Positions 9,458 to 33,200 of a DNA stretch of 64,000 nucleotides are shown here, in pieces (position 1 is the stretch's first letter; every line of letters begins with the position of its first letter). The notes below the pieces were generated by a model. The model saw only the letters and a list, made by a program, of their open reading frames with translations, was not told where the DNA came from and did no database searches. Source of the stretch: Giardia intestinalis (Eukaryota). The stretch lies in NCBI GenBank assembly GCA_000002435.2, contig CM018791.1. One strand, written 5' to 3'. A program made the position numbers and the translations under genes.

Positions 9458-9535
9458 GTGTGGCACCGGCTCTTGCTCTAATCTGATTTTTAAGAGCACG
9501 CCAGAGCATTTACACAACGCTTCCTGCGGGCCTAC

Positions 9536-10183: not shown

Positions 10184-10191
10184 AGTTCTTA

Positions 10192-11952: not shown

Positions 11953-13428
11953 ATGGGATCGTCCTCTGGCGCTCAGGGAAAGACTAAGGGGTCGTCCATC
12001 CAGGCGTACAGGAGTATCAAGATTAAGGGTGTCGTGTACAATGTCTGGCTGCGCTTTAAAACGGGGGATTTCTCTGTCCATCTTGAGAATGATGAAACTG
12101 GAGAACACTGGTTCAACGCGTTCACGCCTGAATATATAGATGAAATGACACGCAAAACGGGAAACCAACGGCGCTATGACGTATTCACAAGTATGCTGAC
12201 CTCGGCTTTGGAGAAGACAAGCTCTCGTCGGCCGAACAGTCAAACTCCTTTGGACTTAAGTCTCGATTTGCTCTTTGTGGAGGATCTCGAGCGCATGAGG
12301 GATGCGAATGGTGGGGCACACAGCGACTCTGTTGATGCAACGATCCAATCGGCTGCCAACAAGTCGCGTTGCTTCCTCATCGTGGCATACGCAGTAGAGT
12401 TTGAGCGCACCTTCTACCCTCTTCCGCTCAACAAGTCCGGACCACCGAGCACAAACCTCGAGGAATGGCTCTTATTTGCATATCGGCATACGAAGGAGCA
12501 AGCAAGACGGATGATGGAGGAAAGCAGTCTGAACGAAGGGATAGTCAGCATGAGTGGGACAGATACCCAGAAGCTTCGGACAGAGCTTAAAAAGCAGAAG
12601 GAGATAATATTTTCTCTGGAAAAGGAGCGGAACAAGGCTTTGGAAGTTTCAAAGAAACTACTAACGGAAAACAACATACTAAAGGAGCAGCTAACTCACA
12701 TCAAGGATTCTATCGTGTCCAGAACCGCCAGCAATGGAAGATCGCTAAGCCGTGACCTATCAGGTAGAACGTTGAAATCTGAATCTGCCAACACGAGGTC
12801 AACTAGACCCTATGCGGAACAGTCACACAAGAGTAGGAGCCAACGATACTACAGAGAGGGAGAGACAAGTAGACCTCCCTCGCAAACTCATTCTCGTGCA
12901 TCGAGTCGGTCTGCGAGCAATACTGCCAAAAGATCAACATCTCGTCACGTCTCAGAACAGCCTTCCCCTGCTGTGGCATCTGGGTACCTCAACCTCTCCC
13001 ATGCACGGTCACGCAGTGCATCGATTGGCAACTCGCAAACATTACGTGGATCCTATACCAGCTCGATGAGCGCTTCGCTAAACCCATTCAAGCGTACCAC
13101 ATCCACAATCTATTCTAATAGTGCGTCAGAGTTTGATGAAGGCCTCTCACAGCAGCTTGTTGAGAAGGCTAGAAGGTCTAGCAGCCGGAGCTCTGAAGGC
13201 CGCCGAAGAAAGCGGTCGTCTTCGTCACACAGGAACAGAGATTCTGTGGTTCTAGACGATTACAATGATAGAGGAAGCGGGCATCACGGATCTAGCTCCA
13301 GCAGGACTCGAACACAGAGAAGCGCTCAATATGAGGAGCCTCAAGACGATAGACACAGATCCGGAAGTGGTAGGAGGAAACACAGGAAAGAGCACTCTGG
13401 TGCATCTAGATCTGAAAAATATTATTAG
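11953..13428 (+). CDS. CCDC61: CCDC61 / VFL3 homologue (basal-body/centriole protein) with Ser/Arg-rich C-terminal tail
   Basis: The N-terminal head aligns with recalled metazoan CCDC61: W..F....I.EMTRKTGN, LDL(S)LDLL..EDLE.MR, and LIVAYAVEFERTFYPLPL versus LILIYSVEFDRIHYPLPL. A central coiled coil is followed by an RS-rich tail. Confidence 0.7.
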   Translation: MGSSSGAQGKTKGSSIQAYRSIKIKGVVYNVWLRFKTGDFSVHLENDETGEHWFNAFTPEYIDEMTRKTGNQRRYDVFTSMLTSALEKTSSRRPNSQTPLDLSLDLLFVEDLERMRDANGGAHSDSVDATIQSAANKSRCFLIVAYAVEFERTFYPLPLNKSGPPSTNLEEWLLFAYRHTKEQARRMMEESSLNEGIVSMSGTDTQKLRTELKKQKEIIFSLEKERNKALEVSKKLLTENNILKEQLTHIKDSIVSRTASNGRSLSRDLSGRTLKSESANTRSTRPYAEQSHKSRSQRYYREGETSRPPSQTHSRASSRSASNTAKRSTSRHVSEQPSPAVASGYLNLSHARSRSASIGNSQTLRGSYTSSMSASLNPFKRTTSTIYSNSASEFDEGLSQQLVEKARRSSSRSSEGRRRKRSSSSHRNRDSVVLDDYNDRGSGHHGSSSSRTRTQRSAQYEEPQDDRHRSGSGRRKHRKEHSGASRSEKYY

Positions 13429-13448: not shown

Positions 13449-16400
13449 TCATCCGTTGGGGGGCGCTAACATGAGTATTTCGGTATTAGCCTTTCTTAGG
13501 TCTGAGATCATGCGATTGAGCTTGTGTACTTCAAGTTCCTTTGCGCGCAGATTGGCCTGCAGTATCTCTACCGTGGTCGTTGCAGCGATGTAGTTCTGAA
13601 CAGAGAGCCCCGATACGATTCTCGAATCTCTGCCCGAAAGGTCTCTAATAGTTTGGAATAATTGGCTAATAACTGTCTCATAAGCATCGCTTATTTCTCG
13701 ATGCTGCTCTACGCCGTTTAGAAAAGTTCCATTGACATCCCTGACGACAACTCGGATCTCTGGATGGCCTAGCATCTGCTCCAACTGTGCACAGGTCAGC
13801 AGATGGCGGTTTTTCATGTCCTCGTAACTCTGTTGCAGCCTCTCTAGGTCGTTAGTAAGCTCTCTGCATGTACTCTCCAAGCGGGTGACGTACAGTCCAG
13901 GGGAGCCGTTATATTCTGGCGGAACATGGATGCCCTCAATGATCTGCTTTAAGCGCGCAAGATCACGGGTAATGTTGGCACCATCAGAGTCACTGCAGTG
14001 ATCCTTGAGAGCCTTGATTTGCTGCTCTGACTTCGAGAGCTCCTGGCGCAGATGTGCATTCTCTAGCACAAGCTTCACATGAGCGTCATCAACTGCTTTA
14101 GATGTTGTGCCACGAGGTGCGAGAGCACCAAGAACGGCACACGGCGAGGTCTGCAACTGTTTGTTAGACTGATCTGTCTTCAGAGGGTGTGCAAGCATGA
14201 CAAGTCTCTCGTTATCTTCCTCGAGCTCTTTGATACGGGCCTGCAAGCCTAGCACTTCGTCATGGAGAGTCAGCTGGAGGCTTTGAAGTTCCTGCTGCTG
14301 ACCTGCAATTATAGCGGCTTGATCAGCACCTCTATTCTGTAATTCTGTACACATTTCTTGCAGTCTGCTGCAGTCGTCAGAAGCTCGCTGCATGCTCTCT
14401 AATGTCTCCCTGAGTCGCAGCTCGGCTACCTCGGCACGAGTCGTTATTGCCTTATTCTCCTCTAGACTCGCTTTGTGCTCCGATTCCAAACATTGAAGAC
14501 GCTTCTCGAGATTCAGCGCATTACACACGAGTGCGTTTTCATCATCTGTCTTAAGTGTACGAAGCTGTGTAATGATGGCTTCTAAATCCTTCTTCTCAGC
14601 GTACATAGCCTGGAATTGCTTATCAGATGAATCTTTGAGCTTTTCAAGTGCAGCCCTAAGAGATGCTGCTTCCTCCTCAAGGAGACGATGCTCTTCCAGG
14701 CTAACTGTTGTCTTGAGATGCTCCTTAAGCGCCTCGCTTGTCTTTCGTTTGAAGTCGCGAAGTTCGTCTGTGAGCTTTGTGTTGGCTCTTGAAAGCCTTT
14801 CATTCTCAGCTCGCATCCTCCAAACCTCTTGAGTAAGGGCCACGTGGGCCTGCTGTATTTCGTTTGCCTTCTGAAGTGTTACCTCTGACTCTCGTTGCTT
14901 TTCCTCTAAGGACAAGATTTTCTGTTGCATAGACACCGTGGAAAGCTGCTCGTCGCTTAGCTGCGTATACGTTGCATGCTGAGAGTAAGCATAGGCATGC
15001 AAAGTATCATACTTCTTCTGCAGTTCGACCGCCTCATTAACTGCCTTCTCCTTTTCTGCCGAGGTGTCAAGAAGCTCCTCGCTCAAAAGCCGAAGACGCT
15101 CCATCAGAGACACGTTTTCTGCTGCAAGATCTTGTGCCAAGTCATCCTTAACGACGGTCTCTCTTTCCAGGAAGTCGTGTTCCGTCTGAGTGGCTGACGA
15201 GACGGTCAGTGGCGGAGCTGGTGCTGTTTGTAATGCTTCAAGAGCGGTTTCCATAGACAGTAGCTCTCTGTTGAGACGTAAGTTTTCCTTTGTAAGTTCC
15301 TTAAGCTCATCGTTAGCCTTGGACAGCTCCTCTTTACATCTAGTGGTCTCCTGCAGGTAATCTAGGGCGTTATTTCGTGTGTCAACTAGTTGGTTCCGTA
15401 TTGCAAAGCAGTGCTCACGTTCCTGTGCAAGCTCTGCCTCTACTTTGGCAAGCGTCGCTTCTGTAGCTACAAGCTTGCTCATCGTAAGGTCGAGATCTCG
15501 AGCCGTAAGGGTTGACTGTATGTCGACGTTGGCAGCTGCTGTACATTGTGCGGCAGATTGCTGGATCTCAGTTTGAATTTCAGTTTGAATTGCCTTTTGG
15601 TCACATGCAGCCGCAACAGCCCTTGGAGTTTTTTCATTATAACCCAGATATGCATCAGTTTGTGTTGCACATTCTATACTAGCATGTGGAGCGGTTGTCT
15701 CTGTTGCAAGATGGGCCCGGGCTGCGGATGCTTCGTAGATAAAGAGCTTTCTCTCCAAGTCATTGACCTTTGCAACCAAAACATCGTTATCCTCTATAAT
15801 TGCCGAAATATTTCCTTGATTGAAAGACCGTTTAAGCTCTATGAGCATGCTTTTCAACTTCTTATTCTTTTCGCGAAGCTCACTATTCTGCTGCTCAAGC
15901 GCCTGCTGGTGGGATGCGTAATATATTTGCTGCAAATAGCTTGGTTGCGAAGAATGTGCTGATTCAACCGGTTCTCCTGTGTTCTGCTTTTTGGCTGGCA
16001 CCTGAAGATCTAAGGGGCATTCCATTAGCATATCTACCGAACCGCCTAGTGTAGTTGTCAAAGACTTGTCTTTGTCTCCATTACTACTGGCGTGGCGTGG
16101 GGGTATAATGAGGCTGTGCTGGCCGCTAACGGTGATGGTCGAAGAGCATGTCTTGCTAGCAGGCTTATGTAGTGCGGAGAGGACTGGGTTTATCGTGGAG
16201 CAATCTATAGACACTGTTTCCCCGCTATGCAATTCGTTTGCTGTGTCGATGGGCGCGGATACGGAAAGGTCTGGTAGTCGGTTAATGGGGATTGATTTCG
16301 AGCAGGGTACAACAACCGGCGAGCTCTGGCTTTCGTGTTGATCCGTTGACACACGGGTGAAGCTTTCCAATGCTGCTGTGACGTCTTCGAACCTCTCTCG

Positions 16401-17348
16401 CAGAGTGGCCATCTCTTGCTTCATGAGTTTATTGTCTCCAGTTATGGCCCAAAGAAGATTCTCAAGGGAGCTTTCGTTCTTTGTGTGGCGAAGTCGTCGC
16501 TTGATGGACGTAGCAGGCGAGGAAGAAGAGACAAAGCTGAGACGTCGGGGGCTGCATGCAGTAAGTGCCTTGGCCCGCCGCTTGCTACCAATTGTACTAC
16601 TCTTTACAAAGTGATACTTATGCTGCCGTCTGTAGAGATTGGTTAGTACACTTGCGTGGGCGGGATAGGGCCCCTTTGTGACAGATGCTATACTGGGTAT
16701 TCCGGCAACGGTGCTATTTAGGGCATGAGAGGAGGTAGACGCTGATCGCCCCTTGCAAGACGGTACCCTAGTCCCCGAAGGACCAGAGATAGATGCCCTC
16801 CTGCTGGAAGCAGAGTTGAGGGAGGTAGAGCGAGAGGAGACACTCTCTTGAATCTCTTCCAACATGGTGTAGGGCCTGTGCCGGAGTACATGCTTAGAGT
16901 CACGCTCTGCTGGCTTCTGCGAAGAAGGACGCTGGTGGCGGTCTGATGATCGAGGCCTTGCTATCTTCTTAGTATGGATAGTGAAAAGCTCCGGGGTGGC
17001 CTGCACACTCGTCAACGACGGCTGAACGGAAAAAGAAGACAGAGGGGGTGTCTGAAGACATGCCCTCAATCTGTCTATCTCTGCATTGGCAATCGCTAGC
17101 TTCTTTTCAAGGTCCACACTATGGACAAGAAGTGCCTGAGAGGCGCCCCGGAGGCACGAATATTTTGACAAAAGCATGGATACTGGAGCAGTGGATAAAT
17201 CCGAGTCGCTGTCCGAAAGAAGGGCCTGCATGTTCTTGATGGGATCCAATGTCATCTTAAAGAGAAACGAGTCTGCCGCGTCTCCAGCGCCCGTACTGCT
17301 GTCTGCAGCGCTAGGAACAGGATCTAACAAGACTCCAGAACCACACAT
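13449..17348 (-). CDS. Large coiled-coil protein (1299 aa) with Ser-rich N-terminal region
   Basis: ATG at 17348. The N-terminal approx 450 aa are S/T-rich low complexity and the rest is a continuous coiled coil. It contains a 12-bp tandem duplication (IQTEIQTEIQ). Confidence 0.75.
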   Translation of the reverse strand: MCGSGVLLDPVPSAADSSTGAGDAADSFLFKMTLDPIKNMQALLSDSDSDLSTAPVSMLLSKYSCLRGASQALLVHSVDLEKKLAIANAEIDRLRACLQTPPLSSFSVQPSLTSVQATPELFTIHTKKIARPRSSDRHQRPSSQKPAERDSKHVLRHRPYTMLEEIQESVSSRSTSLNSASSRRASISGPSGTRVPSCKGRSASTSSHALNSTVAGIPSIASVTKGPYPAHASVLTNLYRRQHKYHFVKSSTIGSKRRAKALTACSPRRLSFVSSSSPATSIKRRLRHTKNESSLENLLWAITGDNKLMKQEMATLRERFEDVTAALESFTRVSTDQHESQSSPVVVPCSKSIPINRLPDLSVSAPIDTANELHSGETVSIDCSTINPVLSALHKPASKTCSSTITVSGQHSLIIPPRHASSNGDKDKSLTTTLGGSVDMLMECPLDLQVPAKKQNTGEPVESAHSSQPSYLQQIYYASHQQALEQQNSELREKNKKLKSMLIELKRSFNQGNISAIIEDNDVLVAKVNDLERKLFIYEASAARAHLATETTAPHASIECATQTDAYLGYNEKTPRAVAAACDQKAIQTEIQTEIQQSAAQCTAAANVDIQSTLTARDLDLTMSKLVATEATLAKVEAELAQEREHCFAIRNQLVDTRNNALDYLQETTRCKEELSKANDELKELTKENLRLNRELLSMETALEALQTAPAPPLTVSSATQTEHDFLERETVVKDDLAQDLAAENVSLMERLRLLSEELLDTSAEKEKAVNEAVELQKKYDTLHAYAYSQHATYTQLSDEQLSTVSMQQKILSLEEKQRESEVTLQKANEIQQAHVALTQEVWRMRAENERLSRANTKLTDELRDFKRKTSEALKEHLKTTVSLEEHRLLEEEAASLRAALEKLKDSSDKQFQAMYAEKKDLEAIITQLRTLKTDDENALVCNALNLEKRLQCLESEHKASLEENKAITTRAEVAELRLRETLESMQRASDDCSRLQEMCTELQNRGADQAAIIAGQQQELQSLQLTLHDEVLGLQARIKELEEDNERLVMLAHPLKTDQSNKQLQTSPCAVLGALAPRGTTSKAVDDAHVKLVLENAHLRQELSKSEQQIKALKDHCSDSDGANITRDLARLKQIIEGIHVPPEYNGSPGLYVTRLESTCRELTNDLERLQQSYEDMKNRHLLTCAQLEQMLGHPEIRVVVRDVNGTFLNGVEQHREISDAYETVISQLFQTIRDLSGRDSRIVSGLSVQNYIAATTTVEILQANLRAKELEVHKLNRMISDLRKANTEILMLAPPNG
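15568..15591. repeat. 12-bp perfect tandem duplication (tcagtttgaatt x2) inside the coiled-coil CDS
   Basis: Direct inspection of the sequence. Confidence 0.6.
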
Positions 17349-22278: not shown

Positions 22279-23229
22279 ATGGACTCGCTTCTGGCGGCAA
22301 TAGCAAGCCTGCGCGAGAACCCGGGAGCGAGGGGGGTGCAGACCGATAACGTTATCCTACAGGACCGGGCTCAGGGGCTGACCACGGTTGTCCTGCGGCG
22401 CAGAGAGGCCTTAGAGTCGAAGGTTAAGAGTCTCAAGTCTCAGACACCAGATGCACTGGGATCGCCAGACCCAGCTGACCAGCTTGTGATGGCGCCACAC
22501 AATGGCCTTATACTCATCAGGAACAGATTCAACATTATGGATGTACATCTACTCCTCTGCGCTGCAGAATTCGTCCATCAACTACAGCCTCTGGTGCTGA
22601 GTGACATGGAAGTAGTGCAGCCTCTTCTAGGGCGCGGAATTTTGGCTGCGTACAATGCCGGCAAGCTATCAGGGGCCAGTCAGCCCCGCAAACACATCCA
22701 ATTGATAGGGCTTCCTTTCCTCTCCAAGAATGAGTGGAATGTCTTTCCACTGAGGGCCCTTGTAGAACGTGAGCTTTCAGACCCAGATAGATGTGATGAA
22801 CCAGCTCAACTTTCCGTGTTTGCTGGGCGGAACCACGGGGTGATTCGCTTCAAAAGACCTCCATCACCAGCGAAGCTATATGCGCATTACACCAAGCTCC
22901 TAGAATATTGCAATGCTGGTGATCTTATCACCGTCAACAAGCACGAACTCGGCCTAGGCTTCGACAGGCCCTCGGCCAGTGCGCCTGAAGATGCTAGTGA
23001 TGAGTGCATGGTACAGGTTTATCGCCGCGATTTTTCATTGCTCATTGCTGAGGAGTTCATCTTCATAGGTGTGCGCGAAACTGAAAAGCCCTTTGAAATA
23101 GGGTGTAACAGCATAAGCTACACAGGAAACCTGTTTGTTAGCAGTGATGATCAGGAGCGGACAGTCGCTGAGGTGGGGCCGTTTGCTGTGCTGGCTGCGG
23201 GTCTGGAAGAACTTCCGCCTAAAAAATAA
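22279..23229 (+). CDS. Hypothetical protein (316 aa)
   Basis: Clean ATG ORF. Its TAA stop overlaps the ATG of the first alpha-giardin (TAATG at 23227-23231). No family was recognised. Confidence 0.55.
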   Translation: MDSLLAAIASLRENPGARGVQTDNVILQDRAQGLTTVVLRRREALESKVKSLKSQTPDALGSPDPADQLVMAPHNGLILIRNRFNIMDVHLLLCAAEFVHQLQPLVLSDMEVVQPLLGRGILAAYNAGKLSGASQPRKHIQLIGLPFLSKNEWNVFPLRALVERELSDPDRCDEPAQLSVFAGRNHGVIRFKRPPSPAKLYAHYTKLLEYCNAGDLITVNKHELGLGFDRPSASAPEDASDECMVQVYRRDFSLLIAEEFIFIGVRETEKPFEIGCNSISYTGNLFVSSDDQERTVAEVGPFAVLAAGLEELPPKK

Positions 23230-24119
23230 TGTCTGCCACGGTATCCACAGTGTCCGCGGATCTTCACAAAGCAATAGATGCTGGAGACGAGGACAAGATA
23301 ACCAAGATTACTGCGTCGTATGGATCTGAGCAGCGCGATAAGATCATTCCAGCCTATCACGCAAACTATGGCATCCCTCCCTCGGAAGCCATCCGCAAAG
23401 CGTTTAAGACAGGCTTCTATGAAACAATGATTGTGCACGCGTGGACTTCACGCTTTGAGCTCCGGGCGAAATTGATTCACGAGTCTATTAAAGGGAAGAT
23501 AGATGTGATAACACTACTGGATCTGGTTATAGCTTGCATGCCTGACGACTGGTACGGCACGAAGGTCTGTTACACAAAGCTCTATGGACGCGAACTTGTT
23601 AGAGAAATAGACGAAGTGATAGGGGTGGGTACTCCTTGGCAGAGTCTTGTTTCTGGCTGGGTCAAGCATGATAGAAAGTATCGCAAGTCAATAAAGAGTG
23701 ATGCGGAGGCGTTTCGAATGGCGCTAGACAGTGACAACTACGAAGTCCTCGGAAGTATGCTTGCGACAAGTGTCCCAGATGAATGGATGCGGATTGCCGC
23801 TGCATACGAAGAGACCACTGGGATGCCTATTGACCAGGCGATTGCATCCCGGTACGTGAAGGTGGACCAGACGGCCTTAATTCTAGCACACCACTGGCTT
23901 TGCGACCCGGGCCAGGCGGCTGCGTATATCTGCTCTCAGTGTTGCGCTGAGCGCAAAGGCAACTACGCACGGATTTGTCGCTTCACCTCCATGATGTACG
24001 ACCATTGCCTGAAGTGCAAGTACGCCTACAGGGCGTATGGGTCCCTCGCAATGGATATTCGGAAATGCTTCGAGCCTAAGCTAGCAAAGCATCTGCTAGT
24101 CTTTTGGCGCGTGGAGTAG
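23229..24119 (+). CDS. Alpha-giardin (annexin-like), array copy 1
   Basis: A 296-aa four-repeat annexin-like protein clearly paralogous to the three downstream copies (shared motifs such as LI..ALSGKND...DLVI.C..EDW and C.RIT.MM.D.CLA.KYAY..YG). The start context is aaaaaataATG. Confidence 0.85.
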   Translation: MSATVSTVSADLHKAIDAGDEDKITKITASYGSEQRDKIIPAYHANYGIPPSEAIRKAFKTGFYETMIVHAWTSRFELRAKLIHESIKGKIDVITLLDLVIACMPDDWYGTKVCYTKLYGRELVREIDEVIGVGTPWQSLVSGWVKHDRKYRKSIKSDAEAFRMALDSDNYEVLGSMLATSVPDEWMRIAAAYEETTGMPIDQAIASRYVKVDQTALILAHHWLCDPGQAAAYICSQCCAERKGNYARICRFTSMMYDHCLKCKYAYRAYGSLAMDIRKCFEPKLAKHLLVFWRVE

Positions 24120-24141
24120 TCTAGAGTTTGCGCATCTCATG

Positions 24142-24147
24142 AGTAAA
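24142..24147 (+). promoter_or_regulatory. AGTAAA polyadenylation signal of alpha-giardin copy 1
   Basis: It lies 22 nt after the stop at 24119. Confidence 0.5.
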
Positions 24148-24226
24148 GGCATGGTCTACTTGCAGTTTGAAACACGGTCATAATACTTTGGATAATTTGG
24201 CAGGCATCCAAAAAATAAAACCGCAA

Positions 24227-25120
24227 ATGGTCACCACGGTCCAAGATCTTGCAGAGCAGCTGAGGCAGGCTGTCGAAAGTTCCAATGAGCAGATGATAGC
24301 AGGACTGGCTAGCGCATACAGCGGTAAAGAACGAGAGAAGGTTCTGAGGGCGTATCTGAGCGCAACAGGTACCACTGCTGCCGACGCTATTCGTAAGGCC
24401 CTCAAGAACGGCCCCACCGAGAACTTGCTCGCCTATCTTTGGGATAAGCCCGGAGATGTGCGTGCCAAACTTATCCGCAACGCGCTTTCGGGGAAGAACG
24501 ACGAAGCTGCCCTTATTGACCTTGTTATCCACTGCAGTTCTGAGGATTGGTACAATACATGCACGGAGTATACAACAGATTACAAAAGGGTTCTCAACGA
24601 CGACCTTCTTTCAGACATAGGGACAAAGGAGCAGTGGACAAAGGTTTTCAAGCACTGGATCCTCCACAAGAGGTCTGACCGCTTCGACATCGATGGAGAT
24701 GAGAAGCGCCTGGTCACAGCCATCGGCAAGAAGGACTACGACACCATTGCAGAGATGCTAGGAACCACATCGGTCAGCGAGTACGCAAACATAGTCAGGA
24801 GAGCTGAGGTAACCTTGGGCAAAACCATAGACCAGGCCCTCTCTGCGGTCTGGTCTAAGCAAGACTTGGCAGTGCTTCTAGCCGCGCACTACGAGCTCCT
24901 CCACCCGGCGCGTCTAGCCTTCCACTTGCTTAAGCAGGCGCTCGACGGCAAAAAGCCCGATGAGGCGCGCATCATACGCATCACGGCCCTTACTTTCGAC
25001 ACCTGCCTTGCGGTGAAGTATGCAGCATCCGAGGCTGGCTACGACATTGGTTCTGCATTCGCTAAGGCCCTAGATAAGCGTCTCGCTCCCCTGATTAAAA
25101 TCCTCTGGCGTGTTATGTAA
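24227..25120 (+). CDS. Alpha-giardin (annexin-like), array copy 2
   Basis: Paralogous to copy 1. The track start at 24167 is a TTG. The first ATG at 24227 gives a 297-aa product matching the family length. Confidence 0.85.
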   Translation: MVTTVQDLAEQLRQAVESSNEQMIAGLASAYSGKEREKVLRAYLSATGTTAADAIRKALKNGPTENLLAYLWDKPGDVRAKLIRNALSGKNDEAALIDLVIHCSSEDWYNTCTEYTTDYKRVLNDDLLSDIGTKEQWTKVFKHWILHKRSDRFDIDGDEKRLVTAIGKKDYDTIAEMLGTTSVSEYANIVRRAEVTLGKTIDQALSAVWSKQDLAVLLAAHYELLHPARLAFHLLKQALDGKKPDEARIIRITALTFDTCLAVKYAASEAGYDIGSAFAKALDKRLAPLIKILWRVM

Positions 25121-25140
25121 AGGCGGCTATTACGCTTTCG

Positions 25141-25147
25141 AGTAAAC
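25141..25147 (+). promoter_or_regulatory. AGTAAAC polyadenylation signal of alpha-giardin copy 2
   Basis: Canonical Giardia AGTRAAY 20 nt after the stop. Confidence 0.55.
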
Positions 25148-25318
25148 GATCTCCAGTTGTGTGAGCCAAAGGAGAAACAGTGGCCGGCTCCCTCTTTTTG
25201 TTTTCTGGCCCAGGTTCTCTAGGAGCCCATCTACGGTTTACCTGGGCTCGTATGAAGCCCTGTAAACCTTCGAACCCTTCGCATCAGTTGGTAGAGGTCT
25301 CAGGGGCAGGAAAAAATA

Positions 25319-26227
25319 ATGACGTCCACTGTTGCTCAGATATGCTCGGATCTCAAGGGGGCTATCGACAAAAAAGACGAGCTTCGAATTGCCTTCATTG
25401 CCTCTGAATATTCGTCGCCGAGTCGTCTTAAAATCGCGCAGAGCTATGAAGCAACCTACAAAACCCCGATCACTGAAGCCATCAAAAAGTCCCTGAAAGG
25501 AGGAACTGCCGAGGATTTACTGGTGAATATGTGGGTCAGTAGACATGAGCATCGCGCAGAGCTGATAAATAAAGCCCTAGGCGGTTCCAGCGACGAAGAG
25601 GCGATTCGCGAACTGGTGTTTCTCTGCAATCCTGAAGATTGGCACGAGACCGCGTCTGTTTATAACCAAAAGTATCAGAAGATCATGCAGGACGCCGTCA
25701 CAAAGGCGATTGGAAGCAAAAGTCATTGGGCAAAGCTTGTGGCAGGTTGGATGGAACACAAACGTGAAGATAGGGGGTCGGTTGAAAACGATGTCAAGTA
25801 TTTGAAGGAGCTCATAGACGCACCCGTGACGGACGGAAATGCGTTAGCGCAATTCTTTGCCAGCACAACCCCTGATGAGTACACTCAGATAGCAGACAAG
25901 TTTTGCGAAGAATATAATTTAAGCATTGATCAGGCTCTTGTGAGGCCGCTAAAGGAGAACGAAGACGATCTGGAGGCATATGCTGCTGCCCACTTTGCGC
26001 TCCACGGGCTTCCCGTCTTGGCGGCCCAACTCATCAACAAAGCATGCAGACCCAAGAACGGAAACGAGCGAAGTATCTGCAGAATAACAACCCTCATGGT
26101 TGATCAGTGCTTGGCGGCAAAGTATGCGTATAAACTCTATGGAGACATGGGGGCAGACCTGTCTCGCTGCTTTGACGAGCGAATGGCCCCTATTTTGCGC
26201 ACGCTATGGCGCGTCACAGATGCATAG
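25319..26227 (+). CDS. Alpha-giardin (annexin-like), array copy 3
   Basis: A 302-aa paralogue with the same aaaaaataATG start context as copy 1. Confidence 0.85.
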   Translation: MTSTVAQICSDLKGAIDKKDELRIAFIASEYSSPSRLKIAQSYEATYKTPITEAIKKSLKGGTAEDLLVNMWVSRHEHRAELINKALGGSSDEEAIRELVFLCNPEDWHETASVYNQKYQKIMQDAVTKAIGSKSHWAKLVAGWMEHKREDRGSVENDVKYLKELIDAPVTDGNALAQFFASTTPDEYTQIADKFCEEYNLSIDQALVRPLKENEDDLEAYAAAHFALHGLPVLAAQLINKACRPKNGNERSICRITTLMVDQCLAAKYAYKLYGDMGADLSRCFDERMAPILRTLWRVTDA

Positions 26228-26296
26228 GATAAGCGAACTCATGATGGAAATTCAAATTACCTTAAAATATATTTTCTGAGCGCTTACATTTAGAAA

Positions 26297-27187
26297 ATGC
26301 CGAAGCTATCCCAGATCGTCGCTGACATGAAGCAGGCCATCGATGCCAAGGACGAGGCCCAGATCGCGTTCATAGCGTCGGAATACTCTGCAGATGCGCG
26401 TCAGAGGATTGCGCAGGGGTACAGGGACCAATACGGCAAGGAGCTCCCCGACGACATCAAGAAGGCGCTCAAGGGCGGCTCCGAGGAGAGCCTCCTGATG
26501 GATCTCTTCAGCGATCGTCACGAGGTCCGCGCCCAGCACATCCGCGACGCGCTTTCCGGCAAGAACGACCACATGGCCTTCTTCGACACAGTCATTCTGT
26601 GCACCCCCGAAGACTGGCACGAGACCGTCGCCGCCTACACGAGGATGTTCAAGAAGCCCCTCGTCGAGGACTTCATGAAGGATGTCGGCCGCAAGGAGAA
26701 TTGGTGTCTTTTCATGGAGAAGTGGATGGCTCACGAGCGCACTAGCCGTGAAGGCAGCCCTGACGAGGAAGCAGAGAAACTGAACAAGGCGTTCAGTGAG
26801 AGCGACCACGACTACATTTCCAGCTTCATGGCTGGGGTGCCTCCCGAAGAATACAAGTCCATCAACACCAGCTTCAAGAGCCTTACAGGAAAGGGCATCG
26901 ACCAGGCCTTCGCCACCATCTATACGGGGACTGACTACTACTCCCTGTACTGCGCCCACTTTGCTCTTCTTGGCATGCACAAGCTTGCCGCCTACCTGGT
27001 CAACTGCGCCTGCAACGATAAGGGCGACGAGAAGCGCATGAGGAGGATCACGGGCATGATGGTCGACAAGTGCTTGGCTGCAAAGTATGCCTACAAGACC
27101 TACGGGAGTATGAAAGCCGACGTCGAAAGGTGCTTTGATAAGCGCATGGCTCCGATCCTCTGTACCCTCTGGCGCCTAAGGGAGTGA
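26297..27187 (+). CDS. Alpha-giardin, alpha-1/alpha-2-giardin-like (array copy 4)
   Basis: At 296 aa it is closest to the recalled alpha-1/alpha-2 giardin sequence (KELPDDIKKALKGGSEESLLMDLFSDRHEVRAQHIRDALSGKNDHMAFFDTVILCTPEDWHETVAAYTRMFKKPLVEDFMKDVGRKE, CACNDKGDEKRMRRITGMMVDKCLAAKYAYK). The exact paralogue number cannot be assigned without a database. Confidence 0.9.
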   Translation: MPKLSQIVADMKQAIDAKDEAQIAFIASEYSADARQRIAQGYRDQYGKELPDDIKKALKGGSEESLLMDLFSDRHEVRAQHIRDALSGKNDHMAFFDTVILCTPEDWHETVAAYTRMFKKPLVEDFMKDVGRKENWCLFMEKWMAHERTSREGSPDEEAEKLNKAFSESDHDYISSFMAGVPPEEYKSINTSFKSLTGKGIDQAFATIYTGTDYYSLYCAHFALLGMHKLAAYLVNCACNDKGDEKRMRRITGMMVDKCLAAKYAYKTYGSMKADVERCFDKRMAPILCTLWRLRE

Positions 27188-27216
27188 GCGCCTTTACTGC
27201 GGGGTTTCCTTTCGCT

Positions 27217-27223
27217 AGTGAAT
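27217..27223 (+). promoter_or_regulatory. AGTGAAT polyadenylation signal of alpha-giardin copy 4
   Basis: AGTRAAY motif about 30 nt after the stop at 27187. Confidence 0.45.
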
Positions 27224-27235
27224 TGCCTAGCGGGT

Positions 27236-27242
27236 GTTTACT
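27236..27242 (-). promoter_or_regulatory. AGTAAAC polyadenylation signal overlapping the stop codon of the minus-strand membrane-protein gene
   Basis: The minus strand reads cAGTAAACa, with the TAA stop (27238-27240) embedded in the motif. Confidence 0.55.
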
Positions 27243-30198
27243 GCCTTCTGTTTCTTTTTGCCCTGTCCTGGCGGTCCAAGATGCTATCCTGCGATGAGAG
27301 GTCTTTCGAGAACGGATGCGAGAAGTCTGGGATTGCTACATGCCGTCCACCTGACTGTGAGGGTGAGTAGGACTGGAGTAGCGGCAAGGAGTGGGAGCTC
27401 ATGTTGTCCATAGAGCTGTATGCCTGATCAATCTGCCCATTTCCTGCTTGTCCTCTGCGGGTTTTTTGTTTCAGATCTGAGCTGCCTAACCGAGAGGGGC
27501 CGTACTCTATGCTTAGTTCTCTATTAACCAACTGAACAGCCTTTGCTCGCTTGCTTGCCAGTGTATATTTATATCTATATTTCAAGAACAGAGAGAGGAC
27601 CGTGATGAAGAGGAGCAGGATGAGTGTCGCAACGGACCAGAACACGACAATAAGGGCTATAGACATCTTAGAATGATAACCAACAAAGCTTATGAACTCC
27701 TCTCCACTGAAAGAAGAGGAAAGATACCGAGTCTCGTAAAACTGAATGGTAGTCCTATCGATGGTGTGCCCCCAGATAGGGTCTACTATCGGCTGGTTGG
27801 TAAGATTGCTTGCAGCGGTATCGACAGCTGCCACAACCACTAAGTAGTAAGGCTCGTGCTTGTACGAAGGAAGGTCAACGGGAATGCGAAGCATGGACCA
27901 GGTGTTATTTGCTTGCTCGATAAACTCAGGAGTATATATTTCAGTATTGTCTGCAGCGGGTGCAACGACCCACTCGCTTACTCTATAAACAACATTAGAT
28001 GTATCCATATCTTGTACACTAGGTGTATGCTCTAGTGCCCCCTCTAGCCCACATCTGGAAATAGGGACCATCGGATAGGCCTGTCTAACCTCAGCCACGG
28101 ATGCACACGGGACCAAGTAAACGGCGTATGCAATATGAATGCCGGCCTCTCCGGTGTAAGCGGTGTACCTTTGTGCCGGTGCCTTGGCGCTATCCACCTC
28201 AATTATGTCAGACATAAGTCCCGTATGGATTCTAACTCGCGAATCGCCAATGATGATCCCCGCAAACCTTGTTAAATACCCAATTTTATAAGAGATTGCT
28301 GAGGGAGAGACATATTCTGTATCAAGGATCCTAACAAATGTAGCGTATGACGAGTACACAGGGGCATACACCATTGCCTCTGTGATAGGAACAAGCATGT
28401 CCAGGAAATTGATTCCCGAATGATCCATGTTGTCGGTCAGGCGGAGCTTAATTGGTTTTTTGTTGCTTTGATTTGAAAGGAACAGAGACGTATTACAAAC
28501 ATCAAAATAGATGTACCCACTGAGAGTGCTGACTCCCGTAGTGTGGCCAGAGTCTATGTAATATAGGTTCAAGGCCGATAGTGGATTGCTCTCTGTTCCA
28601 TAGAGCAATCCTGGTCTCAACGGAGCTGGCTTGGCCGCGTTTAGAATCAGGAGATCCAAATCAACAGAATGTTCAAGCTTTATATAGATTGAGCCGGTAT
28701 CTGGCTGTACTGAGAAGTCTTCTGGGCGAATCCGGAGGACAGCAGATTTATTTGTTATTGCCTCGAGATAGGTTGGTATGACAGAGCTCCCTGCATAGTT
28801 AACTCCACTAAGGTGGGGGAAGTTCATAACGTAAGCAAGAGAGTTATGAGTTTCGTTCGGATAGACAAGCGTAGTACTTAAGAAGAACTGCACATACGGG
28901 TGAAAGTTGGGAATAGAGACTTCGTAGAACGGGCGGAGCGTGATAACAACAACGAGCTCATCATCTATCCAGCCAGGATTCTCTATGATGAGAAGGGTTG
29001 CCTTGTTGCGATTATTTTTATTCACGAAGGATAGTGTCTCTGTGGCGCCGGTTATGAAGTTAACGTTAGTAAGGAATATCTTGCAGCTCCCGGCACTCTT
29101 TAAATTATATATCTCTGCTGACGTTGAGGCCTGGTACCCGGCAAACGAGGATAAGTCGGAGACATAGATAGAGGAAAGGTATCCTGGCGGAGTTACCTCC
29201 TGTACGGTCATCCACGCGTACCGAAGAGTGTTCTGCAGTATTAGGGAGCAGGCTACACTAAGGATATTATATCTAAGACAGATCCTGATGGAGGAATAAG
29301 GAATGCGCTCGGCGTCGAGACAGGTCGAGCCTATTAGTATTTGTGTTCCTGCTCGATAGTCAGATATGTCAACGGTATAGTGTATGGGTACATTATAATA
29401 GTCTATCTGCAAGTCAGGAGTAAAGCGCTGGTAGCGCTCAACATACGATATTGTCAAAGAGGAGAGTTCGTCGTGGAGATTGACAGTAAGGTAGTAGAAG
29501 CTTGACTCCATAAAGAGGCGCTTTGGGAGCGTTAAGTGGTCCTCTTGGTCGTTGGTAGCAGCAACGTACTGATACGTGTTACCAACAGAGCGAATGAGTA
29601 GGGTGGTAGGGTTGGCCAGCGACTCTCTTTTTGTAGCGAACGGTTGAGAATGAAGATCGATGAAGCAAGTAGGAGGAGCGTTCGCAGGTGTTTTATCGCC
29701 ATCAGAGAATGTGAGGAGGATGTCATGGAGTCCATCGTTTGCTAAGGCGAGAACACGCTCGCTTGCACGTGCATTGCCAGCAATAGTTATACTTTTTCCA
29801 TATATCAACTGCCTAAAGAGCCCGGCTGTGAAGTTTATGGTCGTAGGCATGGTAGCCTGGACTGTGAAATCGATGACAGATGGTGTAGAGCTTTCAGATA
29901 GCTGAATCAAGGAGGCTACTGTTTCCAACGGAATGGCAGTCATGTTGCTTCCCGTCGTTAACAAAAGCGGTATCCTCCCTACAGATACGCTCACAGTCGA
30001 CGTCTTTGCATAGGAAGTAAGGTTGACGCATAGGAGAGGCGAACTATTATGAACTGGCGTATATGTATACCTTATAGTGGCTGTGGAGTCTATGTCTAGA
30101 GAGATTGGTTCCATGTCCTTTATATTATAGACTCCTTCAGTGCTATGGGACGCTAGTATCATGGAAAGAAGAGCGAGTTGCAGTGTTCCCGGCCCCAT
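27238..30198 (-). CDS. Large type I membrane glycoprotein (signal peptide, approx 830-aa ectodomain, one TM, approx 110-aa cytoplasmic tail), family unknown
   Basis: The track start at 30207 is a TTG, and the ATG is at 30198. The N-terminal signal peptide is MGPGTLQLALLSMILASHS. It has many N-x-S/T sites, a single TM helix (IALIVVFWSVATLILLLFITVLSLFL) and a basic/Ser-rich tail. Confidence 0.75.
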   Translation of the reverse strand: MGPGTLQLALLSMILASHSTEGVYNIKDMEPISLDIDSTATIRYTYTPVHNSSPLLCVNLTSYAKTSTVSVSVGRIPLLLTTGSNMTAIPLETVASLIQLSESSTPSVIDFTVQATMPTTINFTAGLFRQLIYGKSITIAGNARASERVLALANDGLHDILLTFSDGDKTPANAPPTCFIDLHSQPFATKRESLANPTTLLIRSVGNTYQYVAATNDQEDHLTLPKRLFMESSFYYLTVNLHDELSSLTISYVERYQRFTPDLQIDYYNVPIHYTVDISDYRAGTQILIGSTCLDAERIPYSSIRICLRYNILSVACSLILQNTLRYAWMTVQEVTPPGYLSSIYVSDLSSFAGYQASTSAEIYNLKSAGSCKIFLTNVNFITGATETLSFVNKNNRNKATLLIIENPGWIDDELVVVITLRPFYEVSIPNFHPYVQFFLSTTLVYPNETHNSLAYVMNFPHLSGVNYAGSSVIPTYLEAITNKSAVLRIRPEDFSVQPDTGSIYIKLEHSVDLDLLILNAAKPAPLRPGLLYGTESNPLSALNLYYIDSGHTTGVSTLSGYIYFDVCNTSLFLSNQSNKKPIKLRLTDNMDHSGINFLDMLVPITEAMVYAPVYSSYATFVRILDTEYVSPSAISYKIGYLTRFAGIIIGDSRVRIHTGLMSDIIEVDSAKAPAQRYTAYTGEAGIHIAYAVYLVPCASVAEVRQAYPMVPISRCGLEGALEHTPSVQDMDTSNVVYRVSEWVVAPAADNTEIYTPEFIEQANNTWSMLRIPVDLPSYKHEPYYLVVVAAVDTAASNLTNQPIVDPIWGHTIDRTTIQFYETRYLSSSFSGEEFISFVGYHSKMSIALIVVFWSVATLILLLFITVLSLFLKYRYKYTLASKRAKAVQLVNRELSIEYGPSRLGSSDLKQKTRRGQAGNGQIDQAYSSMDNMSSHSLPLLQSYSPSQSGGRHVAIPDFSHPFSKDLSSQDSILDRQDRAKRNRRQ

Positions 30199-30270
30199 TA
30201 TGGGCAAAACTGTTTGTAGAGATGAGGATGGGTTTGCTTTTTATTTTTCTCTGAGTATTTCTACTCTACC

Positions 30271-33200
30271 ATGCCTCCTCTGGCCCGTAGAGACCTTACC
30301 ATTCCTGCAGCCCTGCGCGCTATCTCTCGACAAACAGGGCACCGCATCTCATGTGATGAGAAGCGTGCGAAGTCAAGCATCTCTCAGTTTCGCAGCCACT
30401 CCCCTCAACCGTCATACCTTGCATCGGAAGCCCGTCTCAGTGGATACAAAAGTATATTTAAGGCGCAAAATCCACCGAAAGTCCTTTCCAGTATTGATGC
30501 TTTTCTTCGTCCGAACGAAGAAAAGAAAGAACCCATCTCCCCGCCATCAGAGGCGGTCATAGGCTCGCCAAGGATGTTTACCATGAGCCCAAAGTTTGCC
30601 AGAAGTAAGGCACTTGGCATAGATCCCCGCTCTCTAGCGCCCTCAGACAATATTTACTATAAAGCAGCCGAGTTTCCCAGTCAAAATGCAGAGTTCTACA
30701 GCAATCAGCCACCACCCATCACAAGCAGCCTCCCAGATACAGCATACAGCAAGGCGGTTCATCCTCCGACAACCGAGGACGGAATCCGACGTGTGGGCAG
30801 CGTCATGTCTGTGTTGCGGCCAACAGATGCGGCTCCCCGACTAGAAAAGGCGCAAGCAGCAGACTTCCTTTTAGAACAACTCATAGAGAACTCGGTTCAG
30901 ATCCTGCACGGGCTCGGACTCAGTAGGATTTATGAAGCAAACCAGACCCAAAATTGGTATGAATGTGAGGTAATTGCAAAAATGGGTGATAAGTTTGAAG
31001 TGTACTTTCCTGCTATCAACCATAAGAAGATAGTAACATTGAAGAACCTAATATTAAAGCAAATTACGATCACACAGGCCTCTGATGTTACTCTTCCTAT
31101 GTTGCCAAACTACAGTTCGCAGAACACCAACTCAATGGCTGCAATCACTAATGCAATACCCACAGTTCCTGAGGCACAGAGTTTAGCACACGCTCCTTTC
31201 TCACCTCCCTCTGAACAGAGAGACAAGGGCACAGTTGCAGACTCCGCACACATGGCCTCATTCAGTACACTTGCTGATAAGCCAGCGGTTGTTCTTCCTC
31301 CAAGAAAAAAATCCAGACCAGCTCCTCACACCGCTAGTTCTGACTCACATTACCAGTCAGTGCCCATTACCTTAGATGATATAGCAGAAGCAACAGACTC
31401 TCAGCAGATCAATCTGTTTGATGAATCTTTTGATAACTCATCTTTTACCCACGTAATCACACAACCCTATGTTCATGTAACGGTATCTCCCTGTATGCCC
31501 TGCATCTCTCTGGAGCCACCTAGCAGTATGAGCGCATCGGAATGCACAGTAAGAAGTGATATTCAACCCGCACCAGAGCTTGAGGAGCCCGGCTGTGCTA
31601 ACCTTTCCGTCATGGCAGATATGCTCAGTGATCTTATTAATGAAATCACACCAGCGTATAACACGTCACTATTTGGGAAGCGCCCCTCCTCCTGTCGACT
31701 GAATATCACGGACGCTCAATCTGATCCCGATGCAGTCCCTTCAAATATGTACAGGGGACATGCAAATCATACTGGTGCTCCATTTGATTGCGTAGAGTTG
31801 TATGAGGCCACTGAGCAGCCAAACAACGCTAACACTACTTTTGAGTGTACAGATTTCCTTGAGCAGGTGCTGAATAGCGCTAGTCCAGAGGTAAACAATG
31901 ACCCCAAGGAGTCATCTCTTACGGCGAACATTGTTCTCACCGATGCTAAAGGCCCACCAGATATATTCCTTTCCAACGACACAACGACTAGCAAGACCGA
32001 TCAGTTTGAAATCACACTTAAGCCATTGGCTGCACCAAAGGAGCAAGACACACTCTGTACATATACCCCCATACAGCAGCTCCCGCTGACACCCTCAAGG
32101 AACAAGCCTACCAGAACCATTGACTTAGTGTCTCTTCTGGGGATAACAACGCACACAGAGCTTATCAATGTGTTCCTGGAGTGTATAGATCACTTCACTC
32201 TCAAAGACCGCTTTGCAATGGCTGTTCGCTATCTGTCTTCGGAAATTCTTCACCGCAAGGTCCAAAACCACCAGTATTTAAGTATATTTACCACTTCCAT
32301 CATAGCAGCACTACTGGAGCTACGATTGCCCCACACAAGCCGTGCATCATATACGATAGACTGCGTTACGGATTACCGCGAGGCACAAATAAGATTGGAT
32401 AAGGTGCGCTTCAAATGCAACGCCGATCGCCTCCAGGCACTTCAGAATCTTGCACACGAAAAAGAGCTGCTTTACAAAAAGCTCTGCCTCACCTTTCAAA
32501 CTAAGAATCTGACTACCAGCTCTGCTGTCGAGTTGTGCTCCATCGGAATCAAATCTGCTCAACCTATCTTAAACCACATCAGAACGAGCAAGCTAACCCT
32601 TCATCTGGAGTCACTAGATCCCCCTGCTTTCAACTTCCAGCAGACAATGGCAGATGCAGTCATGGACTACCTGGCCAATGCACAGACGACTGATCTTCAA
32701 ATCCAGCTTATTCAAGAGGCCTCTATCAATACCTCTTCCCCTATTCACTGGTGTCACACATATCTTGCTAGCTTTTTATGGAACACATCCAAATATTACC
32801 TCACTGCTCAAAACACTTCTATAGTCAACTACATGGCACAAACGGCTGCTGATCGTCGCTTGATGATGGAGCGGGGAATAGCTGCACTATCTAATATCTC
32901 GTACCTGAGTGCAGATCGAGCGATGTTTCTACTTTTCCGACAACTTACAGCTACCATCGAAGACTATATCGGATATCTGACGCTTACGCCGGATCTCCTT
33001 TTGGTGACTGGGATTCCGTTTTACCCAAAGGTCTCGCCGGATATTTTAGGGTCCATTGTTTTCACAGAAGACTCTGAACAAAGGGAAAAGCGACTAGTAA
33101 CGGAAAATGGCGTCTCCCTTGATCCTGATCAAAAGGTAGTGATGTTCGACGGATACTCTCTCAAGAAAAGACTTGGCTACCGGTTTTTTCCCGAGGTGCA

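Follow-up and report, generated by a model that had tools for sequence, protein, structure and literature searches.

GL50803_137755, a lineage-restricted, non-variant gene of the Giardia duodenalis complex predicted to encode a type I membrane protein

The Giardia coat is dominated by switching VSPs, which are recognised by a Cys-rich ectodomain with many CxxC motifs, a conserved CRGKA C-terminus, and a match to the Pfam VSP model. Among proteins of comparable gross architecture, those of the HAP2/GCS1 type hold disulphide-rich ectodomains. GlVps, a further Giardia protein, has a tyrosine motif in its tail that reportedly directs traffic to peripheral vacuoles (PMC3423367). Outside Giardia, the trypanosome ISG/IGP families are an example, among parasitic protists, of type I membrane glycoproteins that are invariant and restricted to one lineage (PMC4497807).

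The gene analysed here, GL50803_137755, has so far been part of a much larger and anonymous set. Hypothetical-protein genes account for about two thirds of Giardia ORFs according to one paper, and GL50803_137755 is one of many such lineage-restricted "hypothetical" genes, with no evidence that singles it out. Literature searched by identifier holds no mention of it or of its alternative IDs, and 137755 is absent from the searched supplements of Giardia proteomic, transcriptomic, and genomic studies.

A conserved single-copy gene and its flanks

Within the window, that is, the whole stretch of 64,000 nucleotides that was analysed, an uninterrupted minus-strand ORF of 986 codons extends over positions 27238-30198, from an ATG at 30198 to a TAA stop at 27238-27240. 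Its product is 100% identical to the hypothetical protein GL50803_00137755 (GL50803_137755; UniProt A8BI07) of Giardia duodenalis WB, and full-length orthologues with identities of 64-82% are found in assemblages A2, B, and E, as well as in two other lineages. The gene is single copy, since homology searches return one sequence cluster per lineage, and the order giant ORF, GL50803_137755, alpha-giardin array is kept across lineages. In five lineages the ORF remains uninterrupted, at a saturated synonymous divergence (dS 0.8 to >2). Purifying selection is evident from a dN/dS of 0.11 overall against assemblage E (Nei-Gojobori); by part, the same comparison gives values of 0.07-0.13 for the ectodomain (three regions) and for the tail, and of about 0.2 for the signal peptide and the transmembrane (TM) segment, both of which are short. 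GL50803_137755 is a genuine, single-copy gene of the Giardia duodenalis species complex, maintained by purifying selection.

Diversifying selection on the ectodomain was considered through within-assemblage polymorphism and dropped, as amino-acid polymorphism is not significantly more frequent in the ectodomain than in the tail (Fisher p=0.24 and 0.35). Surface exposure thus receives no support from any pattern of immune-driven diversification. As judged by sequence searches, orthologues are confined to the G. duodenalis complex. An orthologue in G. muris or other diplomonads was also sought through synteny, using the adjacent 6975-aa protein; this neighbour likewise has homologues only in the G. 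duodenalis complex and thus provides no synteny anchor.

Both flanks of the gene hold candidate expression signals (Table 1). Giardia promoters are short and AT-rich, and by analogy an AT-rich element located 38-50 nt upstream of the ATG, AAAAATAAAAAGC (30236-30248), is a candidate promoter or initiator. This block reads the same in WB and assemblage E, lacks one base in L001, and has diverged further in assemblage B. The encystation Myb-box C[TA]ACAG, also looked for in the promoter, is present in only one of four lineages and is therefore not conserved. On the 3' side, a candidate poly(A) signal for GL50803_137755 is provided by AGTAAA on the minus strand (27193-27198), while the plus-strand AGTGAAT, assigned to the alpha-giardin gene, fits the Giardia poly(A) consensus AGTRAAY; a 3' block, CGCTAG..AATTCACTAGCG, is conserved in four of four lineages. 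The GC3 of GL50803_137755 (0.50, versus 0.80 for alpha-1 giardin) suggests a low to moderate expression.

Table 1. Features of the GL50803_137755 locus, with positions in the window
Feature	Coordinates	Strand	Basis or remarks
Complete CDS GL50803_00137755 / A8BI07, 986 codons + TAA	27238..30198	-	ORF translation, 100% identity, full-length orthologues in four further lineages
Predicted signal peptide, residues 1-22 (MGPGTLQLALLSMILASHSTEG)	30133..30198	-	Hydrophobic h-region, read from sequence
Ectodomain region D1, residues 23-371	29086..30132	-	Ends in variable linker 347-371
Ectodomain region D2, residues 372-735	27994..29085	-	Ends in indel-rich linker; dN/dS 0.09
Membrane-proximal ectodomain region D3, residues 736-843	27670..27993	-	Possibly FN3/Ig-like
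Predicted single TM helix, residues 845-872 (MSIALIVVFWSVATLILLLFITVLSLFL)	27583..27666	-	Hydropathy
Predicted cytoplasmic tail, residues 873-986	27241..27582	-	Basic, Ser-rich, invariant short motifs
Divergent intergenic region, 72 bp, shared with the 6975-aa ORF	30199..30270	.	Upstream comparison
Convergent intergenic region, 50 bp, containing the 3' ends of both GL50803_137755 and the alpha-giardin gene	27188..27237	.	Sequence

Predicted architecture of the protein

GL50803_137755 is predicted to encode a single-pass membrane protein of 986 aa with type I (N-out, C-in) topology, as an earlier sequence-only reading of the locus had proposed. Hydropathy and charge agree with the features expected of this topology, namely an N-terminal signal, one TM segment, and a positive-inside flank. 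The h-region LQLALLSMILA is followed by small residues, which, judged by eye, fits a cleavable signal peptide with possible cleavage sites at SHS|T or TEG|V. Conservation along the protein is lowest in this segment (41-64% identity), although its hydrophobicity is kept in the orthologues. There is exactly one strong hydrophobic segment, at residues 845-872, which takes all 15 top-scoring 19-residue windows (Kyte-Doolittle mean up to 2.97). It has an acidic flank on its N-terminal side and is followed directly on its C-terminal side by the basic cluster KYRYKYTLASKRAK, in agreement with the positive-inside rule. The dimensions proposed for the two soluble parts were also close to those counted: 821 aa (residues 23-843), with a net charge of -25, for an ectodomain given as about 830 aa, and 114 aa, with 16.7% Ser and a net charge of +10 (20 K+R versus 10 D+E), for a basic, Ser-rich tail given as about 110 aa.

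The emphasis of the same reading on a glycoprotein did not survive counting. Instead of the more than 25 N-x-S/T sites claimed, the protein holds 11, of which 10 lie in the ectodomain (12 in all with N-P-S/T), compared with 8.4 predicted by composition, so that sequon density is at chance level and unusually dense N-glycosylation is not apparent; five sequons are invariant in all five orthologues. On the other hand, its exclusion of the variant surface repertoire was borne out. GL50803_137755 has nine Cys residues (0.9%), seven of them conserved across orthologues over the 821 aa, and no CxxC motif, and is therefore neither a VSP nor an HCMP, the latter being expected to hold at least about 10% Cys with repeated CxxC/CxC. 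Its C-terminus reads ...AKRNRRQ, lacking the CRGKA tail, and it has no match to PF03302 or to any other Pfam model at E<=10, while the VSP gene in the same window (56532-58949), taken as a positive control, matches with E=1.5e-84. As a single-copy gene with syntenic orthologues, GL50803_137755 likewise falls outside the variant repertoire.

In the orthologue alignment, the ectodomain is divided by two linkers of variable sequence with many indels (residues 347-371 and 700-735), the second of which bears a PEPEPEPEP insertion in one orthologue. D3 is the most conserved part of the protein, with a mean column identity of 87% and a dN/dS of 0.07. The description of the ectodomain as beta-rich holds weakly for D1, where the hydrophobic period-2 signal exceeds that of shuffled sequences (z=2.3 for residues 23-371) and AlphaFold returns an all-beta model for about residues 30-255 (pLDDT only 50-66), but not for the whole ectodomain (z=1.5). 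These models give a weak hint that about residues 30-255 may form one or two jelly-roll-like beta-sandwiches. D2 is modelled with a pLDDT of 20-45 and has no PDB profile match at E<=10. For D3, with a pLDDT below 50, the sole PDB profile match is the FN3 domain of the IL-22 receptor alpha-2 (E=0.077, not significant), which suggests that an FN3-like domain may adjoin the membrane (residues 736-843). Fold searches with the low-confidence models returned generic sandwich matches only. As both structure models are of low confidence (pLDDT 32.7 for the full length with a five-sequence alignment, and 47.6 for residues 23-371), these fold hints could be artefacts. Self-comparison with hhalign revealed no internal repeats.

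The tail, for which AlphaFold gives no confident structure, is probably disordered, and it is conserved (dN/dS 0.08-0.11), with blocks of invariant residues that include the motifs VQLV.RE.S.EY, SSMDNM, LPL, YSPSQ, and HPFSKD.SSQDS.LD. The tail also carries a YxxPhi-like YSSM (HSSM in one orthologue), an LPLL/LPLI/LPLM motif, and serines close to acidic residues (SSMDNMSS, SSQDS.LD), all short enough that they could be chance matches. The alignment, inspected by eye, shows no canonical C-terminal di-lysine ER-retrieval motif in any orthologue.

Family searches and competing explanations

The statement that no family could be assigned to the protein was confirmed by exhaustive searches of Pfam, NCBIfam, PDB, sequence databases, and metagenomes. 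At E<=10, no Pfam family was retrieved for the target, and the five orthologous sequences gave only chance-level matches, such as DUF2244 on the TM segment. NCBIfam returned no significant match, and neither did sequence (phmmer) and profile searches of the PDB with the whole protein and its three sub-domains. When 1.84 billion representatives were searched exhaustively with phmmer, only G. duodenalis-complex sequences were recovered, word-indexed searches with the sequence and with a profile yielded at most the orthologues from this complex, and a degenerate-pattern scan of JGI metagenomes found nothing. Two signatures spotted by eye, a pair of D[ST]G motifs at 500 and 549 read as an aspartic protease and a DLDL pattern read as a PPC domain, had no model support and were discarded. 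GL50803_137755 thus belongs to no family detectable by sequence.

From this architecture, an adhesion- or receptor-type protein is the most reasonable reading. The explanation that we favour, tentatively and at a little less than an even chance, is a membrane protein of the receptor or adhesin type, lineage-specific and non-variant, with its trafficking governed by the conserved tail. Its ectodomain would consist of beta-sandwich modules in series, with a jelly-roll-like fold at the N-terminus and an FN3-like one by the membrane, an arrangement with which the two variable, indel-rich linkers are consistent. It would act as a non-variant binding platform, facing either the exterior of the trophozoite or the lumen of the ER/peripheral-vacuole system. 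The disordered tail might serve as a sorting and signalling handle, in which YSSM, LPLL/LPLI/LPLM, and the serines in acidic contexts would recruit adaptor or kinase machinery and, by doing so, control where the protein resides and how it cycles.

Alternatively, the protein may be an intracellular cargo-sorting receptor, similar in function to Vps10/sortilin or GlVps rather than to a surface adhesin, that would pick up lumenal hydrolases or cyst-wall material in the ER and deliver them to peripheral vacuoles or encystation vesicles. Type I topology, a conserved tail with YxxPhi-like and LL-like motifs, and the lack of a diversifying-selection signature on the ectodomain all agree with this role, and Giardia is reported to possess a sorting receptor that depends on a tyrosine motif (PMC3423367). 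However, no Vps10/sortilin or other Pfam family was matched, and 137755 does not appear in the searched supplements of organelle and clathrin-interactome proteomics or of encystation expression studies. This function is considered unlikely.

It is improbable that GL50803_137755 is the orthologue, diverged to an extreme degree, of a housekeeping type I glycoprotein of the ER or nuclear envelope that is conserved among eukaryotes; the candidates would include EMC1, nicastrin/nicalin, NOMO, gp210/Pom152-like proteins, and PIG-T. A single-copy, non-variant gene under purifying selection, with a codon usage that suggests low expression, would suit such a role; a length of 986 aa with a large lumenal domain and one C-terminal TM segment resembles EMC1 or NOMO, and sequence methods often fail on Giardia proteins because of their divergence. 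Nevertheless, homology to a housekeeping glycoprotein of the ER or Golgi, which the sequence-only reading had named as the result that would lower the interest of this gene, was not found: nicalin, nicastrin, ribophorins/OST, EMC1, NOMO, PIG-T, and sortilin gave neither Pfam-domain nor PDB-sequence matches, the five orthologues fall into no Pfam family and have no PDB sequence or profile match, and the phmmer search of representatives stayed within the G. duodenalis complex. The protein also evolves fast for core machinery, with 82% identity between assemblages A and E compared to 97% for the adjoining alpha-giardin, and proteins of the EMC1 or NOMO type do not typically bear a conserved cytoplasmic tail of 114 aa.

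It is very improbable that GL50803_137755 drives cell or nuclear fusion as a HAP2/GCS1-type (class II, fusexin) membrane fusogen, or as one of an analogous kind. This reading agrees with the gross architecture alone (signal peptide, large and probably beta-rich ectodomain, one TM segment, and basic tail), and karyogamy and genetic exchange have been reported for Giardia, as cited in PMC8113336. The literature searched assigns no fusogen to this organism. The suggestion of a fusogen-type protein received no positive support: no Pfam family at E<=10 for the five orthologues and no PDB sequence or profile match pointed to HAP2-GCS1 or any other fusogen (HAP2 entries being assumed to be present in both libraries), and the matched PDB chains include neither. 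In addition, seven conserved Cys in 821 aa contrast with the disulphide-rich HAP2 ectodomains, and a family confined to one species complex contrasts with the antiquity of HAP2. Just as improbable, with the architecture as the one point in its favour, is a Giardia-specific protein that promotes fusion, as the fusogen itself or as a co-factor, through a fold that bears no relation to HAP2; located in the ER/nuclear envelope or on the surface, it would mediate the nuclear or cell fusion inferred for Giardia cysts. To our knowledge, no fusogen is known for these events.

Finally, a chance ORF or decaying pseudogene, in line with the lack of functional annotation, literature, or family, is effectively refuted by a frame intact in five lineages despite the high dS, a dN/dS of about 0.1, conserved synteny, and the presence of the gene on dozens of independent assemblies.

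Significance and comparison with known systems

The main practical result is a negative one, in that GL50803_137755 is not predicted to be heavily glycosylated and is not a VSP or HCMP, not detectably a HAP2, and not a recognisable housekeeping glycoprotein. Should trophozoites display the protein on their surface, it would join the few non-variant surface proteins common to the human-infective assemblages A and B, and, because the coat is otherwise made up mainly of switching VSPs, it would then merit interest as an invariant antigen, a factor in attachment, or a target for diagnostics. Its ectodomain may also hold folds missing from current databases.

With HAP2/GCS1 class II gamete fusogens, the protein shares only gross architecture, and differs from them in the lack of a Pfam or PDB sequence match, its few conserved Cys, and its restriction to one species complex. 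Modular beta-sandwich ectodomains, such as those of tandem CUB domains, galectin/SPRY-like jelly-rolls, and FN3 cytokine-receptor modules, provide the best, although weak, matches. The domain-linker pattern of the alignment fits a modular build of this kind; however, the matches lie below or at the edge of significance, come from low-confidence models, and are not accompanied by any Pfam model at E<=10. GlVps, also a type I protein, may be a functional analogue (PMC3423367), although GL50803_137755 is larger, has different tail motifs, and shows no detected sequence similarity to it. The VSPs and HCMPs share with it the organism, the type I topology, and, in the case of one VSP gene, the window itself; unlike them, GL50803_137755 is poor in Cys, lacks CxxC and the CRGKA tail, and stands as a single copy in conserved synteny. 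The trypanosome ISG/IGP families differ in that GL50803_137755 has no sequence relationship to them, is single copy instead of a paralogous expansion, and carries a far larger ectodomain (821 aa). Nonetheless, they resemble it in their combination of a signal peptide, a large lineage-only ectodomain, a single TM segment, and a tail with sorting information (putative in GL50803_137755), and in being non-variant proteins beside a variant surface coat.

Predicted topology and domain layout

The window DNA derives from Giardia duodenalis, whose WB protein XP_001706957.1 (UniProt A8BI07; "hypothetical protein GL50803_00137755") matches the target protein at 100% identity. The gene is already annotated, as hypothetical, and is one among many Giardia-restricted orphans. 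The listed minus-strand ORF (27238..30207) opens with TTG, and the first ATG, at 30198, gives the same limits as the sequence-only reading. The product is a type I membrane protein that is single-copy, non-variant, and restricted to this lineage; the most likely reading, still tentative, is that it is of the receptor or adhesin type.

The signal peptide and single transmembrane segment proposed earlier both hold. The N-terminus, MGPGTLQLALLSMILASHSTEG, is shaped like a signal peptide, and the sole strong membrane segment by hydropathy spans residues 845–872 (19-residue Kyte–Doolittle mean up to 2.97), flanked by an ectodomain of 821 residues and a tail of 114, lengths that had been estimated correctly. 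The type I topology is well supported by KYRYKYTLASKRAK C-terminal to this segment, together with an acidic ectodomain (net charge −25) and a basic tail (+10), the latter with 16.7% Ser. The nine cysteines (0.9%), seven of them invariant, form no CxxC motif, which, with the lack of a Pfam match, bears out the earlier exclusion from the VSP and HCMP families; the VSP elsewhere in the window, a positive control, is recovered by the same library (E = 1.5e-84), which gives nothing for the target. Largely right overall, the sequence-only reading erred in counting more than 25 N-x-S/T sites: the protein has 11 (or 12 with N-P-S/T included), of which the ectodomain holds ten, against 8.4 predicted by composition. 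Five are invariant among orthologues, roughly what the 79% overall column identity would yield.

Variable or indel-rich stretches in the orthologue alignment (residues 347–371 and ~700–735) suggest a division of the ectodomain into three regions—23–371, 372–735, and 736–843—of which the last, membrane-proximal one is the most conserved. The ~700–735 stretch, linking the second and third regions, holds a PEPEPEPEP/(PE)n insertion in one orthologue, from one of the two lineages with 64–65% identity. No internal repeats were found in the target by hhalign self-comparison. As for its proposed beta-rich nature, residues 23–371 exhibit period-2 hydrophobic periodicity above shuffles (z = 2.3), whereas the remainder does not, and AlphaFold places strands in approximately residues 30–255, at a pLDDT of only 50–66.

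Tail motifs and evidence on location

The tail holds several invariant blocks (VQLV.RE.S.EY, SSMDNM, LPL, YSPSQ, and HPFSKD.SSQDS.LD), a YxxPhi-like YSSM motif (Y to H in one lineage), LPLL/LPLI/LPLM, and serines in acidic contexts. A canonical C-terminal KKxx is absent from every orthologue aligned, and no Cys lies close to the membrane as a palmitoylation site.

Support for surface exposure was sought in polymorphism and in the literature, with negative results. Polymorphic amino-acid sites number 28 within assemblage A (eight sequences) and 78 within assemblage B (13 sequences); their higher density in the ectodomain relative to the tail falls short of significance (Fisher p = 0.24 and 0.35). 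The gene ID and alternative accessions are not mentioned in the literature searched, and "137755" is absent from Giardia supplementary data on organelle proteomics, the clathrin interactome, lipid rafts, two encystation transcriptomes, the secretome, and the G. muris genome, a weak negative because some of these files may be incomplete. A purely intracellular sorting receptor is considered unlikely.

Family searches and structure models

Pfam returned no family for the target at E ≤ 10 and, across all five orthologues, only chance matches on the transmembrane segment or tail; NCBIfam likewise gave no family. Against PDB sequences, the single query had no match, the full-length profile a single one driven by the transmembrane segment (E = 1), the profile of residues 372–735 none, and that of residues 23–371 a chance lipocalin match (E = 0.9). 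The profile of residues 736–843 gave one sub-threshold match, to the FN3 domain of IL-22 receptor alpha-2 (E = 0.077), pairing EPYYLVVVAA with EPYYGRVRAA. Exhaustive phmmer over 1.84 billion cluster representatives retrieved Giardia sequences only, a profile search for distant homologues added nothing, and a JGI metagenome scan yielded no relative. A diverged housekeeping glycoprotein of the ER or nuclear envelope is considered distinctly unlikely.

AlphaFold2, with a five-sequence alignment, modelled the full-length protein at a pLDDT of 32.7 and residues 23–371 at 47.6. For the former, Foldseek against the PDB gave no match below E = 1e-3; with the latter as query, the best Foldseek match was to the tandem CUB domains of cubilin (E = 7e-4, TM ≤ 0.24). 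At most, these results point to one or two probable jelly-roll-like sandwiches within the first 230 residues, and an ectodomain of beta-sandwich modules is weakly indicated. The earlier cautious wording—family unknown, adhesion-type architecture—stands, whereas its fusogen suggestion gains nothing, and such a role is very improbable. Class II fusogens are not among the Foldseek matches, which come from models too poor to count as a fold test.

Locus, orthologues, and comparison with known systems

Features of the target locus and of the window
Feature	Position	Strand	Remarks
Orphan ORF	828-5690	+	1620 aa; sole Pfam match a 22-residue 'Strep_SA_rep', uninformative
Orphan ORF	11953-13428	+	491 aa; no informative Pfam family
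Orphan ORF	13449-17348	-	1299 aa; no informative Pfam family
Ap4A phosphorylase-like gene	22279-23229		Precedes alpha-giardin array
Tandem array, four alpha-giardin genes	23229-27187	+	~296-317 aa each
Last two alpha-giardins (annexin-type)	25319-26227, 26297-27187	+	One flank of target; Pfam Annexin/ANXE1_4th
Mechanical ORF	26306-26980	-	224 aa; antisense to alpha-giardin gene; almost certainly a non-coding listing artefact
Convergent spacer, alpha-giardin stop to target stop	27188-27237		50 bp; strongly conserved in all four lineages compared
Target CDS	27238-30198	-	986 codons from ATG 30198; TAA stop 27240-27238
Mechanical ORF	30140-30562	+	140 aa; spans target 5' end and promoter; almost certainly a non-coding listing artefact
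AT-rich element AAAAATAAAAAGC	30236-30248		Within 72-bp bidirectional intergenic region
Giant ORF	30271-51198	+	6975 aa, uninterrupted; other flank of target, divergent
VSP, bona fide	56532-58949	-	806 aa; Pfam PF03302, E=1.5e-84; G+C-rich segment (GC ~0.60)
Second G+C-rich patch	60-62 kb		Overlaps protein kinase gene 60533-61684

The target is a real gene, with full-length orthologues in assemblage E (P15; 82% identity), assemblage B (GS/GL50581_2496; 72%), and two lineages from public read assemblies such as SRR17450158 (P0004, at 8001–10997 of locus L001, and P0005; 64–65% identical to WB). The alpha-giardins adjoining the SRR17450158 orthologue are 88–90% identical to WB, which places these lineages within the G. 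duodenalis complex, probably as non-human assemblages. Gene order (giant ORF, target, alpha-giardin array) is constant in all loci fetched. Relative to assemblage E, dN/dS is 0.11 overall (Nei–Gojobori, dS 0.8), with 0.13, 0.09, and 0.07 for the successive ectodomain regions and 0.11 for the tail; that the ORF is no gene at all is a negligible prospect. Between assemblages A and E, the target (82% identity) evolves much faster at the protein level than its alpha-giardin neighbour (97%) and about as fast as the giant ORF (85%).

The giant ORF encodes a giant orphan protein: neither half matches a Pfam family at E ≤ 0.01, and its homologues (75–98% identity) are confined to the G. duodenalis complex, so its use as a synteny anchor toward G. 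muris failed. Its head-to-head arrangement with the target is kept in assemblages B, E, and one further lineage, and the AT-rich element between them—unchanged between A and E, shortened by one base in L001, and more diverged in B—is probably their shared promoter or initiator. No conserved Myb-type encystation box was found upstream of the target. On the 3' side, the spacer contains a 6-bp inverted repeat (CGCTAG ... CTAGCG) flanking AATTCA, and AGTGAAT on the plus strand, fitting the Giardia poly(A) signal consensus, AGTRAAY; the 3' UTRs of both genes must overlap.

The first two alpha-giardin genes of the array were identified via their syntenic counterparts in L001. Codon bias is related to expression in Giardia; by this trend, the GC3 of the target (0.50, versus 0.80 in the abundant alpha-1 giardin) suggests modest expression, and that of the last alpha-giardin gene (0.80, versus 0.55–0.58 in its paralogues) suggests much higher expression than theirs.

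As a receptor- or adhesin-type protein, the target would bind a ligand through its modular, probably beta-sandwich ectodomain, while its conserved, presumably disordered, phosphorylatable tail would set trafficking or signalling. The protein might reside in the ER, or else at the plasma membrane together with the peripheral vacuoles. It falls outside the VSP, HCMP, and, at the sequence level, HAP2 families, as well as all housekeeping glycoprotein families recognisable via Pfam or PDB sequences. By inference, it may rather be likened to the modular beta-sandwich ectodomains of adhesion and receptor proteins, and to the invariant type I membrane proteins found beside the variant coats of other parasitic protists.
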